A stretch of DNA of 64,000 nt from Candidatus Wolfebacteria bacterium GW2011_GWA1_44_24 (lineage in GTDB: Bacteria; Patescibacteriota; Minisyncoccia; UBA6257; UBA9933), in the NCBI GenBank assembly GCA_001001115.1, contig LCIO01000002.1:2848-66847 (forward strand), in the 5' to 3' direction. Position numbers and translations under genes: made by a program. How positions within the stretch are numbered: position 1 is the stretch's first letter; each line of letters starts with the position of its first letter. Of the stretch, positions 13,022 to 15,797 are shown piece by piece. The notes under the pieces are model-generated. The model worked only from the letters and a program-made list of their open reading frames with translations. It ran no database searches and had not been told where the DNA came from.

Positions 13022-14320
13022 ATGACTAATGCTTTTGATGTTATTTCCGGCGTTATTGGAAGCATTTTAATGGTCTTTTACGGCGTTTGGTGGCTGGTTT
13101 TGCCAATAATTCTTTTTTTGATTTTTAGGAATGTTTGGCTGATATACGTCAGAACCGAATTCATCAGAAGCAAAAAATGGAAACTTTTTGAAATCAAGGT
13201 TCCGAGGGAAATTTTGAAAACTCCGAAAGCTATGGAACAGGTTTTCGCGAGTTTGTACGCTTCTTATACCTACAATTTGAGTTGGCTTAGAAAATGGATA
13301 GACGGACAAGTCAATCTCTGGTTTTCTTTTGAAATAGTCGGTTATCACGGCGGGGTTTATTTTTACGTTTACGCGCCCGAGGAGAGGAAAAATTTAATTG
13401 AAAGCGCGATTTACGCCCAGTATCCGGACGCGGAAATCGCGGAAGTTGAAGATTATATCGACCTTCTGCCAACGGTTTTGCCGAATGAAACTTTTGACCT
13501 TTGGGGAACAGAACTGGTTTTAGCCCGCGAAAATTACCTTCCCATAAAAACTTATCTTAGTTTTGAATCAATGGTGGAGGAACAGCGACTCGATCCGATT
13601 TCGGTTGTGGCTGAAACAATGTCAAAATTGAAAGAGGGAGAATTTATTTGGCTTCAAACGTTAATTAGTCCGACCGGAGCGCCCACCGGCAACAATTGGA
13701 AAAAAGAAGGAGAAGAAAAAATCGCCGAAATTGTCGGTCGGGGAAAAGTAAAGAAGGGCGGTTCAGCCGTTAATGCCTGGCTGAAAAATTTTTTTTGGGC
13801 GCCGGTGGAACATCCAACTTGGCCCGGCGAGAAAAAACCGGAAGCTCCCGCCATGAAATTTTTATCGCCCGACGAACAGGATATGGTTAAAGAAATCGCC
13901 AATAAAATTTCCAAACTGGGATATAAAACCGTCATTCGTTTTGTTTATATCGATCGGCGAGACAGTTTTACTCCGGCCAATTTTTCGGCCATGATAGGAG
14001 CTTTCCATCAATTTAATACTCAAAATCTCAACGCTTTCAAGCCTAATTACATGATTACTCTTTACGATTCGCTTTGGGCAAGGATTTTTCCGAAATATAA
14101 AGATTTAAAAACGCTTTACAAAAAAAGGAGAATTTTCGATTATTACAAAAAAAGAAAATTCGGAAAATACAACAAGGTTTGGGAACAGAAATTTCCGGTT
14201 TTGAACATCGAAGAACTGGCAACCATTTATCATTTCCCGGGAGTGCCGGTGGGAGCGCCGCGGCTCAGAAAACTGGAATTCAAGAAAAGCGGCCCGCCCG
14301 CCGGCTTGCCAATAGAATAA
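13022..14320 (+). CDS. Hypothetical membrane protein (two N-terminal TMs); putative partner of the downstream VirD4/TraD-like ATPase
   Basis: 432 aa. VISGVIGSILMVFYGVWWLVLPIILFLIFRNVWLIYV gives two TMs, followed by a large soluble part ending ...LNIEELATIYHFPG.... Its stop is 1 nt before the next start. Confidence 0.7.
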   Translation: MTNAFDVISGVIGSILMVFYGVWWLVLPIILFLIFRNVWLIYVRTEFIRSKKWKLFEIKVPREILKTPKAMEQVFASLYASYTYNLSWLRKWIDGQVNLWFSFEIVGYHGGVYFYVYAPEERKNLIESAIYAQYPDAEIAEVEDYIDLLPTVLPNETFDLWGTELVLARENYLPIKTYLSFESMVEEQRLDPISVVAETMSKLKEGEFIWLQTLISPTGAPTGNNWKKEGEEKIAEIVGRGKVKKGGSAVNAWLKNFFWAPVEHPTWPGEKKPEAPAMKFLSPDEQDMVKEIANKISKLGYKTVIRFVYIDRRDSFTPANFSAMIGAFHQFNTQNLNAFKPNYMITLYDSLWARIFPKYKDLKTLYKKRRIFDYYKKRKFGKYNKVWEQKFPVLNIEELATIYHFPGVPVGAPRLRKLEFKKSGPPAGLPIE

Positions 14321-14321
14321 T

Positions 14322-15797
14322 ATGCCTGATATGGAAAAAGACGAAACAACTTTATTCGCCCAAACTAATTTTCGGGGAGAAAAACGCCGTTTCGGCATCA
14401 AAACCGACGACCGCCGGCGTCATTTTTACATTATCGGGAAAACCGGCGTCGGTAAAACGACGATGTTGGAAAACTTGGCCATTGCCGATATCCGGGCCGG
14501 TCGCGGAGTGGCAATAATCGACCCCCACGGCGAATTCGCCGAAAAAATGCTTGATTTTGTGCCTGAGAGCCGGCTGGATGACGTGATTTATTTTAATCCC
14601 GCGGACATTGACCATCCCATTGCTTTTAATCCTTTGGGGTCGGTCAGGGAAGAACACCGCCATTTGATCGCGTCAGGCATGATGGGCATATTCAAAAAAA
14701 TTTGGGTTGACGCCTGGTCGGCGCGAATGGAATATATTCTGAATAATACGCTTTTATCTTTGCTCGAGTATCCCGACTCGACACTTTTGGGCATTATGAG
14801 AATGTTGGCGGAAAAAGAATACCGGAAAAAAGTCGTTGACAATCTGAAAGACCCGGTGATTAAGGCTTTTTGGCTTAATGAATTTGCCCGCTATTCCCAG
14901 AAATTTGAAACAGAAGCGGTGGCGGCCATTCAAAACAAAGTCGGCCAGTTTGTGTCCAATCCTTTAATCAGAAATATCATCGGCCAACCGCATTCAACCA
15001 TTGATATGAGAAAAGTGATGGACGACAGAAAAATTTTAATCGTCAATCTTTCTAAAGGCAAAGTGGGGGAAGATAATTCCGCTCTTTTGGGAGCGATGAT
15101 AATCACCAAACTTCAATTGGCGGCGATGTCAAGAGTGGATTTGCCGATGGAGCGCAGGTTGGATTTCTATCTTTATGTTGACGAGTTTCAGAGTTTTTCA
15201 ACTGAATCGTTCGCAAACATTTTGTCCGAAGCCAGAAAATATCGCTTGAATCTTATTCTGGCCCATCAATATATCGAACAGCTTTCCGAGGAGGTCGGAG
15301 CCGCGGTTTTTGGAAACGTCGGCACAATCGTTTGTTTCCGGGTCGGAGCGACCGACGCCGAATTTCTGGAAAAAGAACTTCTTCCGGAATTTAACGCCAA
15401 TGATTTGGTCAATCTGCCGAAATATCATATTTATATAAAATTAATGATTGACGGCGTGGCCTCAAAGGCTTTTTCCGCCGAAACTTTATCGCCGTTTGAC
15501 GCGCCATTGGAATCGTTCAAAGATATTATTTTTGAAAATTCGCGGAGAAAATACGGAACGCCGCGCGCCGTTGTTGAACATAAAATCGCCGAAGAATGGA
15601 AAGCAGAAACGGGAATTATCGAAGAAAAAATTCGGCGCCGCGAAGAACAGCCGCTTTCAAAAATTTTGACGCCGGAAGGAACGCCTTTTAGAAAGACGGA
15701 ACAACGGGAATCGCCGGCGCCGAAAGAGAAAAAGCCGGCGGCGGATATTGAAGAACTAAGAAAAGCCATTGAGGAATCGCTAAAAAGAAAAGAATAA
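14322..15797 (+). CDS. P-loop NTPase of the type IV coupling protein (VirD4/TraD/TrwB-like) / HerA-FtsK superfamily; no TM segment
   Basis: 491 aa. Walker A HFYIIGKTGVGKTT, ...GVAIIDPHGEF..., FNPL motif, Walker B DFYLYVDEFQSF, ...RKYRLNLILAHQYIEQL.... This motif pattern and order is typical of T4SS DNA-binding coupling ATPases (inference, no HMM run). Confidence 0.7.
   Translation: MPDMEKDETTLFAQTNFRGEKRRFGIKTDDRRRHFYIIGKTGVGKTTMLENLAIADIRAGRGVAIIDPHGEFAEKMLDFVPESRLDDVIYFNPADIDHPIAFNPLGSVREEHRHLIASGMMGIFKKIWVDAWSARMEYILNNTLLSLLEYPDSTLLGIMRMLAEKEYRKKVVDNLKDPVIKAFWLNEFARYSQKFETEAVAAIQNKVGQFVSNPLIRNIIGQPHSTIDMRKVMDDRKILIVNLSKGKVGEDNSALLGAMIITKLQLAAMSRVDLPMERRLDFYLYVDEFQSFSTESFANILSEARKYRLNLILAHQYIEQLSEEVGAAVFGNVGTIVCFRVGATDAEFLEKELLPEFNANDLVNLPKYHIYIKLMIDGVASKAFSAETLSPFDAPLESFKDIIFENSRRKYGTPRAVVEHKIAEEWKAETGIIEEKIRRREEQPLSKILTPEGTPFRKTEQRESPAPKEKKPAADIEELRKAIEESLKRKE

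Follow-up and report, generated by a model that had tools for sequence, protein, structure and literature searches.

Two adjacent genes in a stretch of 64,000 nucleotides (the window) from Candidatus Wolfebacteria bacterium GW2011_GWA1_44_24 (assembly GCA_001001115.1, contig LCIO01000002.1) were found to encode the two parts of one type IV coupling protein (T4CP)-like ATPase. The upstream gene, P1 (13022-14320, + strand, ATG start), encodes a 432-aa protein of family DUF8128 (PF26449) with a predicted N-terminal anchor and a putatively cytoplasmic α/β domain; the downstream gene, P2 (14322-15797, + strand, ATG start), encodes a soluble TrwB/VirD4-type ATPase of 491 aa. Judging from sequence comparisons, the pair is a true split of a single DUF8128-type T4CP-like ATPase, a structural identity that was considered highly probable. 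The split state is fixed in Paceibacteria, where the two genes are adjacent and preceded by a gene, hereafter σHARE, whose product combines σ70 region 4 with a HARE-HTH domain. The pair is under very strong purifying selection and stands in a housekeeping context. An original prediction, made from the window letters, had described two adjacent open reading frames (ORFs) of 432 and 491 aa with a gap of one nucleotide, and the ORF listing agreed; the window sequence reads …GAA TAA T ATG… from the P1 stop to the P2 start.

From its sequence, P2 is an ATPase of the TrwB/VirD4 type within the FtsK-HerA superfamily, with intact catalytic residues. It passed four Pfam gathering thresholds: TrwB_AAD_bind (55.1 bits, cut-off 20.5, residues 29-341), T4SS-DNA_transf (32.7 bits, cut-off 20.1), TraG-D_C (24.7, cut-off 22) and DUF87. 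The VirB4-type models AAA_10 (11.9 bits, cut-off 27.5) and P-loop_TraG (12.9, cut-off 25.8) were failed, and FtsK_SpoIIIE was absent from the Pfam matches of P2 even at E values up to 1. P2 also scored far under the cut-offs of all NCBIfam equivalog models (TraD, CD1115 and others) and is therefore a T4CP-type ATPase outside all named subfamilies. A phmmer search of PDB sequences returned TrwB as the best relative (~16 % identity), with DotL also among the best. The AlphaFold2 model of P2 (pLDDT 81, pTM 0.81) likewise retrieved TrwB first with Foldseek (E=3e-12, TMt 0.64, ~425 aligned columns), together with HerA (1e-10), DotL (2e-9), Cagβ (3e-9), DndH-C (5e-9) and the C-terminal domain of VirB4 (2e-7). 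Pfam, phmmer and Foldseek thus upheld the proposed assignment of P2 to VirD4/TraD/TrwB-type ATPases.

The motifs quoted in the original prediction were all recovered in the translations of the respective proteins. In P2, Walker A GKTGVGKTT (14436-14462, + strand; residues 39-47) displayed invariant G39, G42, G44 and K45. Walker B LYVDEFQSF (15171-15197, + strand; residues 284-292) displayed invariant D287 and E288, and the ILAHQYIEQL motif (15255-15284, + strand; residues 312-321) invariant H315, Q316, Y317, Q320 and L321. The catalytic residues K45, D287, E288, H315 and Q316 were invariant across 49 homologues. An all-helical insertion, seen in the secondary structure of the AlphaFold2 model, occupies approximately residues 110-234 between Walker A and Walker B (14649-15023, + strand). 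A 19-residue Kyte-Doolittle scan revealed no hydrophobic segment in P2, as had been claimed; the N-terminal transmembrane (TM) domain of T4CPs is not on the P2 polypeptide, and a separate protein, P1, carries an anchor.

Some P2 homologues displayed features of their own. Those of two divergent lineages (L089, 9668-11623, and L090, 2444-4447; analysed loci are numbered with L) were 650-700 aa long and carried a C-terminal zinc finger, zf_Tbcl_2, which is without counterpart in the 491-aa P2 of the window. In L051 a second P2-like gene (5644-6867), 47 % identical, was located just downstream of the first, which fits the average of ~2 T4CP homologues per genome in the published survey considered below. 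Plasmid NZ_CP081110 of Sulfitobacter mediterraneus (L084, 6001-7188) encodes a 395-aa P2-like ATPase, 43 % identical to the Patescibacteria protein and far closer than any other plasmid match. It was flanked by transposases and had no P1-like gene, as if the ATPase half had passed between phyla by itself.

P1 gave no match in Pfam (in a copy presumably older than PF26449), NCBIfam, PADLOC or PDB sequences. The PF26449 tag was found on a database protein 100 % identical to P1 (P0001) and on nearly all homologues, and the family bears the name DUF8128. No paper naming PF26449 or DUF8128 was found in the literature searched. P1 homologues numbered more than 3,700 in 90 % clusters and formed 2,032 clusters at 50 % identity.

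According to the original prediction, the N-terminus of P1 supplied exactly the two TM helices of canonical coupling proteins. The Kyte-Doolittle profile instead displayed one unbroken hydrophobic stretch of ~38 residues (~6-43) without a polar loop, and AlphaFold2 modelled it as a continuous helix (residues 2-50). This predicted anchor (13040-13150, + strand; residues ~7-43) is followed by basic residues R44, R49, K51 and K52, and because these come after it, the rest of P1 would be cytoplasmic according to the positive-inside rule. One ordinary TM segment was found in members from divergent lineages of the candidate phyla radiation (CPR), Pontibacillus and Streptomyces; two sampled members fell below the scan threshold, and phage and haloarchaeal members had no anchor. 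The conserved core of P1 is the putatively cytoplasmic domain. P1 is not simply the missing two-TM domain of a canonical T4CP: its conserved part is the large DUF8128 domain, and the anchor is absent from phage and haloarchaeal relatives.

The AlphaFold2 model of P1 (pLDDT 85, pTM 0.80) consisted of the N-terminal helix, an α/β region of ~360-370 residues and a C-terminal tail that is disordered (pLDDT <50) yet conserved. The EELATIYHFPG motif (14210-14242, + strand; residues 397-407) forms invariant columns in DUF8128 and aligned with phage G gp156 and with a P1-like protein of Halorussus; in the disordered tail that follows, P426, L429 and P430 were invariant. When the model was compared with PDB by Foldseek, the top 13 matches were all TrwK/VirB4 of the R388 type IV secretion system (T4SS), with E values from 2e-5 to 6e-4 and a probability of ~1. 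Among viral models, P1 matched phage G gp156 and a protein of Bacillus phage JL, each in its N-terminal half (E~5e-16), as well as phage Slash. It also matched gp155 of phage G (E=2.4e-7), whose sequence is VirB4-like in passing P-loop_TraG and AAA_10 with a weak CagE_TrbE_VirB match. A search of PDB sequences with the P1 profile retrieved nothing, and comparison of a broad DUF8128 profile with a five-member profile of VirB4 N-terminal domains (NTDs) gave no sequence support. The cytoplasmic domain of P1 may, with somewhat better than balanced confidence, be VirB4-NTD-like; the likeness was retained as a fold-level hypothesis because profile comparisons did not support it in sequence.

The original prediction had called the pair a split unit, and this description held for reasons of collinearity with single-chain forms. 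PHROG 5156 (phrog_5156), a phage family of 824 positions, matched P1 in its N-terminal and P2 in its C-terminal part. HHalign aligned P1 residues 94-416 with residues 44-319 of phage G gp156 (825 aa) at 96.5 % probability, including the EELATIYHFP motif, and P2 residues 33-387 with residues 378-749 of the same protein at 99.9 % probability. SPO1 gp27.4 (906 aa) displayed the same collinear arrangement of P1-like and P2-like parts. Outside phages, the 120 best matches to an Embleya protein of 812 aa, all within Streptomycetaceae, were inspected, and 118 of them combined PF26449 and PF10412 (TrwB_AAD_bind) in one chain of ~800 aa. P2 matched the Embleya protein at 100 % probability (E=3e-45), and P1 was collinear with Streptomyces N-termini (E=9e-5, 343 columns). 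A protein of Saccharibacteria, SEML1_0293 (see below), matches this layout. In phage G the VirB4-like and DUF8128-T4CP-like ATPases gp155 and gp156 are encoded side by side (L081, 1196-5338); SPO1-like phages retain the latter only.

In Streptomycetaceae the fused gene belongs to clusters with the order T4SS_pilin, TrbL (VirB6-like), PrgI (VirB3-like), VirB4-like ATPase, DUF8128-T4CP, Replic_Relax and SLT/NlpC-P60 hydrolase, one of which was flanked by integrases. These clusters are of the same unusual pilin-bearing monoderm T4SS type as described for Patescibacteria (PMC12102498). Split pairs were also encountered outside Patescibacteria. On a plasmid of Halorussus limi a P1-like gene (376 aa) and the P2-like gene after it (1007 aa) overlap at the start of the latter, and a megaplasmid of Pontibacillus carried a degraded pair. 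The Halorussus plasmid encodes two tandem ATPases of 1092 and 1007 aa annotated with a TraM recognition domain (L086, 1313-8727), of which only the second resembles P2 and is preceded by a P1-like gene. P1 of the CPR type had no phage match, one weak plasmid match and one marginal match to a viral-contig fragment.

Conservation was evaluated in a scan with one genome per species, which uncovered at least 577 relatives; the best 80 loci were analysed, and the following counts concern these species-level Patescibacteria loci. In 77 of the 80 loci P2 immediately followed P1, and in none were the two fused. The three loci without an adjacent P2 (L026, L034 and L047) are real exceptions or, in one case, a contig end. 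In the 77 loci the gap between both genes had a median of 24 nt and ranged from -187 to +961 nt. With the genes unfused in all 77 loci and the spacing so variable, a frameshift artefact or a programmed frameshift between P1 and P2 was rejected. Adjacency is more than chance: P1 and P2 have more than 3,700 and more than 8,000 homologues, respectively, and are neighbours in 77 of 80 species-level genomes. Adjacency of DUF8128 and P2 was also kept in the divergent lineages L088-L090, where P2 kept 59 % identity and P1 fell to 33 %; the pair thus proved conserved as neighbours, as the original prediction implied.

A σHARE gene preceded P1 directly in 78 of the 80 loci. The genes secD and secF were located ahead of it in most loci, as detected by tblastn, and the genes downstream of the pair varied. 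Among the divergent lineages, SecDF genes were found upstream in L088 and L089, and σHARE upstream of P1 in L089. Identities to the window proteins were compared for the 46 loci holding all five genes. Median values were 65 % for P2, 57 % for SecD, 51 % for SecF, 42 % for P1 and 41 % for σHARE, and P2 was the best conserved of the five in 44 of these loci.

The upstream gene had been noted in the original prediction as a regulator, which is present as said; its membership in a conserved unit, extending to Saccharibacteria, had been missed. In the window, σHARE (12011-13000, + strand, 329 aa) displayed σ70 region 4 at residues 11-62 and HARE-HTH at residues 204-267 by Pfam. The σHARE protein is without σ region 2. 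The same architecture was found for SEML1_0294 of Ca. Southlakia epibionticum ML1 (Saccharimonadia), a 349-aa protein with Sigma70_r4 at residues 27-72 and HARE-HTH at 225-283, which belongs to a core, Patescibacteria-enriched family and is essential (Wang et al. 2023, PMC10633639); it is annotated as RpoS. Directly downstream lies SEML1_0293, 921 aa, with TrwB_AAD_bind at residues 402-719 (PMC10633639). From its length and domain coordinates, which leave room for an N-terminal DUF8128, it is apparently a fused DUF8128-T4CP. Linkage of σHARE to a T4CP-like gene therefore spans two distant classes, since SEML1_0294 precedes SEML1_0293 too. The other neighbours of SEML1_0293 differ (α/β hydrolase, topA and dprA), and its T4SS cluster is far away. 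SEML1_0293 likewise belongs to a core, Patescibacteria-enriched family and was non-essential by transposon sequencing (Tn-seq), its normalised reads falling ~4-fold (5817, 2940 and 1372) (PMC10633639). In Patescibacteria the σ70-r4/HARE-HTH protein could be a general factor for transcription or DNA binding that has so far escaped recognition.

The preferred account, held with modest confidence, is that P1 and P2 are two chains of one membrane-tethered DUF8128-type T4CP-like motor serving a chromosomal T4SS; the coupling of the pair to a T4SS is in itself the more doubtful part. P1 would reside in the membrane with its DUF8128 domain facing the cytoplasm, and would hold a P2 hexamer at the cytoplasmic membrane face, probably through the conserved C-terminal motif and tail of P1, which correspond to the linker region of the fused proteins. 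ATP hydrolysis in the P2 ring would power the passage of a polymer (DNA or unfolded protein) to a channel in the membrane. The likeliest channel would be a chromosomal pilin-bearing monoderm VirB4-type T4SS encoded elsewhere in the genome, favoured because in Actinomycetota this type of T4SS has the single-chain form as its coupling-protein gene. σHARE, presumably co-transcribed, may act as a regulator of the unit or bring DNA to its motor, besides having a separate essential role.

Several observations weigh against this account. In a survey of 3,035 Patescibacteria genomes, Quiñonero-Coronel et al. (2025) reported 5,713 VirD4-type T4CP homologues in 2,918 genomes, with VirB4 in 2,417; only 148 of the 5,713 were near virB4, and relaxases were rare (PMC12102498). 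Among six pair-bearing genomes cross-referenced with that survey, three, all draft metagenome-assembled genomes, were listed as VirB4-negative. No T4SS gene (VirB4 included), relaxase or integrase was detectable among the ORFs scanned in the window. The T4SS cluster of Ca. S. epibionticum is essential and without recognisable coupling protein (PMC10633639), but SEML1_0293 is non-essential in the same species. As to a possible VirB4-like fold of P1, TM-scores with TrwK/VirB4 were low (0.28-0.39), folds of FAD oxidases ranked not far below, and the P1 profile gave no sequence support against gp155, the VirB4-like protein of Embleya, TrsE or TrsD. The earlier statement that no other T4SS genes are nearby stood for the 64 kb of the window only; GCA_001001115.1 is listed as VirB4-positive (Table S1 in PMC12102498).

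Much of the same evidence would suit a T4SS-independent housekeeping translocase, exapted in Patescibacteria and working without a VirB4 machine. Its candidate tasks would be DNA transport through or along the membrane in uptake, export or segregation, or another transaction involving the σ70-r4/HARE-HTH protein. T4CP homologues are more widespread than VirB4, the pair occurs in genomes listed as VirB4-negative and apart from virB4 while its linkage to σHARE is kept across two classes, the ATPase is more conserved than SecD, and the Tn-seq behaviour of SEML1_0293 is unlike that of essential T4SS genes; the survey authors also stated that exaptation of t4cp 'cannot be ruled out' (PMC12102498). 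However, neither a substrate nor a partner channel was identified for such a translocase, and the one hydrophobic segment per P1 chain is unlikely to form a pore alone. Outside Patescibacteria the family adjoins VirB4-like genes (Streptomycetaceae clusters, phage G), the genomes listed without VirB4 are only drafts and incomplete, and ComEC-dependent transformation in Saccharibacteria reportedly needs no such motor. An exapted translocase was judged the main rival, though rather unlikely, and a more far-reaching version of it somewhat more so. In that version DUF8128-T4CP would be a distinct, ancient branch of T4SS ATPases, a VirB4-like NTD on a VirD4-like motor and as such a living intermediate between VirB4 and coupling proteins, which in Patescibacteria was detached from T4SS, split, and recruited together with the essential σ70-r4/HARE-HTH protein into a lineage-wide housekeeping process, for which DNA handling at the epibiont membrane is a candidate. 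If true, it would explain why the motor surpasses SecD in conservation and VirB4 in breadth of distribution. An accessory role in protein export with SecDF was considered very improbable. It could draw on the position of secDF upstream of most loci, divergent lineages included, but this adjacency is explained by a frozen gene order in a co-directional housekeeping array. Outside Paceibacteria its loss was seen once; in Saccharibacteria the neighbours are others and the linkage to σHARE persists, and relatives outside CPR have no Sec genes nearby.

Even less credit was given to an anti-phage defence system of the HerA or MADS type. The best PADLOC match of P2 was mad8 of MADS (E=1.6e-21), with models of HerA and DndH next, in line with the HerA and DndH-C matches of Foldseek, but TrwB was structurally closer than HerA, P1 matched no PADLOC model, and the one match of σHARE, to MzaA, came from its σ70 region 4. 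Neither a methyltransferase nor a nuclease nor any further mad gene adjoins the pair, whose neighbours are housekeeping genes and whose core, syntenic and class-wide distribution is unlike that of a defence island; the MADS preprint assigns no function or mechanism to mad8. Defence candidates (mad8, HerA and DndH) were rejected on context and distribution. Least probable of all, and effectively refuted, is a decaying remnant of a conjugative plasmid or of an integrative and conjugative element (ICE), or a gene of another mobile element. The family is named after conjugation proteins and has single-chain relatives in ICE-like clusters, yet the catalytic residues are invariant, and the pair is not a conjugation remnant because P2 is the most conserved gene of its locus. 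The locus follows vertical descent with its synteny kept in 77 of 80 species-level genomes, amid secDF, pheS, tsaD and rpoBC; no integrase, relaxase or transposase was found near the pair, base composition was unbroken across the window, and P1 of the CPR type had hardly any match on mobile elements. The original prediction had already leaned away from a conjugation remnant, correctly in view of the purifying selection and housekeeping context, and it was also right that no relaxase or mobile-element markers stand beside the pair. The function of the pair would be either that of a coupling motor for the chromosomal T4SS, the preferred reading, or that of an exapted translocase.

In the window the pair lies between σHARE, directly upstream of P1, and pheS, downstream of P2, that is between a regulator and pheS as had been described. 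The genes secD (9818-11065, + strand) and secF (11070-11963, + strand) precede σHARE; tblastn found them to be conserved syntenic neighbours of the unit, which does not imply a functional link. In the spacer between secF and σHARE, a σ70-type promoter-like site TTGACA-18-TATATT (11975-12004, + strand) matched the consensus at 11 of 12 positions and is a possible start of a σHARE-P1-P2 transcript. Its -10 element ends 6 nt ahead of the σHARE ATG at 12011, and the transcript would therefore be leaderless or nearly so if this consensus match is real. No intergenic terminator-like site was found on the + strand between 12011 and 15797. The flanks of the unit within the window are composed of housekeeping genes (pheS, tsaD, ftsW/rodA-like, yceG, rpoB and rpoC) and of genes for Ig-domain proteins.

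Of the type IV pilus (T4P) and competence genes named in the original prediction, dprA is located at 35048-35947, and a T4P set at 40.5-48.5 kb (40500-48502) comprises pilM, pilO, pilB, pilT, pilC and a prepilin peptidase. The suggested link of the pair with competence or pili found no support beyond the shared 64-kb window. Genes topA and dprA adjoin on the minus strand (32856-35947), ~17 kb from σHARE and the T4CP-like genes; in Ca. S. epibionticum, unlike in the window, dprA and topA lie just upstream of them. In a co-directional block of ORFs at 1685-9760, which possibly encodes cell-surface proteins, Pfam matches were either missing or confined to Ig-like domains of bacterial type (Big_6 at 6113-7159 and Big_13 at 8030-9760); its ORF at 2293-4401 (702 aa) had no match at all. 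The ORF at 52724-55066 (780 aa) matched no Pfam family at E<=1e-5. GC skew was positive in nearly all 2-kb bins past the first 4 kb, with cumulative skew climbing steadily, and long ORFs were mostly on the + strand, which fits a single replichore read along its leading strand.

T4CP homologues of Patescibacteria, their distance from virB4, the idea of exaptation (PMC12102498) and two-part T4CPs in general are already known. The published survey is silent on the upstream partner of the T4CP homologues (PMC12102498). No earlier description was found of DUF8128 as the partner or of its fold, of DUF8128-T4CP as a widespread single chain in Streptomyces T4SS clusters and phages or its presence on archaeal plasmids, of the fixed split in Paceibacteria with conservation above SecD, or of the cross-class linkage to an essential σ70-r4/HARE-HTH gene. 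Much of bacterial diversity belongs to Patescibacteria, and no T4SS before theirs had been shown to be essential for the growth of the cell that owns it. The orphan T4CP homologue present in ~96 % of surveyed genomes hereby gains an architecture, DUF8128 with a TrwB-like motor, on two chains in Paceibacteria and apparently on one in Saccharimonadia, and a conserved partner, σ70-r4/HARE-HTH, that is essential in the one tractable species. Relatives are set out in ICE-type T4SS clusters of Streptomyces, haloarchaeal plasmids and Bacillus phages, DUF8128, a Pfam domain of unknown function, is given a context, and a testable idea is raised on the relationship between VirB4 and VirD4. A direct test is within reach, as the counterpart is present in a Saccharibacterium amenable to genetics.

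Compared with canonical T4CPs (TrwB of R388, VirD4, TraG and TraD), P2 shares the P-loop core of FtsK-HerA type, its helical insertion sits where TrwB has its all-α domain, and TrwB is its best PDB match by sequence and fold. In contrast to P2, canonical T4CPs carry two TM helices on their own chain, and they are without the large cytoplasmic DUF8128 domain that P1 displays beside its anchor; moreover, P1 and P2 genes are chromosomal, core and highly conserved, and not beside T4SS or relaxase genes. VirB4 proteins (TrwK of R388 and phage G gp155) resemble the unit in overall layout, an N-terminal α/β domain followed by an FtsK-HerA ATPase, but P2 is closer to TrwB by E-value and fails AAA_10 and P-loop_TraG, and P1 has no sequence-level similarity to VirB4 NTDs or TrsD. 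P2 is mad8-like, but the other mad genes of MADS are missing beside the pair, and it differs from FtsK/SpoIIIE translocases in lacking an FtsK_SpoIIIE match.

A precedent for a two-part coupling protein is given by TraJ and TraI of pIP501 (PMC7431656). Like the pair, the two-part T4CPs of pIP501 and pSK41 consist of a soluble VirD4-like ATPase and a separate membrane protein encoded just upstream; unlike it, they belong to tra operons of conjugative plasmids. The pSK41 anchor preceding TraK measures only 154 aa and is unrelated to P1 (0.2 % probability), so that P1 was rejected as its homologue, and TraK matched P2 weakly (17.5 % probability).

Closest in architecture were the fused proteins. 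The Streptomycetaceae DUF8128-T4CPs (~800 aa), annotated as 'type IV secretory system conjugative DNA transfer family protein', display the same two modules in the same order and a single N-terminal hydrophobic segment, but on one polypeptide encoded in a full pilin/VirB6/VirB3/VirB4 cluster with a relaxase-like gene and a hydrolase, and without a σ70-r4/HARE-HTH neighbour. One Streptomyces ICE of T4SS type, whose coupling protein may or may not be of the DUF8128 type, excised in a published test, but its transfer was not seen. SEML1_0293 shares with the pair the TrwB_AAD_bind domain, the membership in a core family, the position downstream of a gene with σ70_r4 and HARE-HTH and the distance from the T4SS cluster, and differs in being fused (921 aa versus the split pair of the window). 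Phage G gp156 and SPO1 gp27.4, finally, join a P1-like half to a P2-like one in collinear order.

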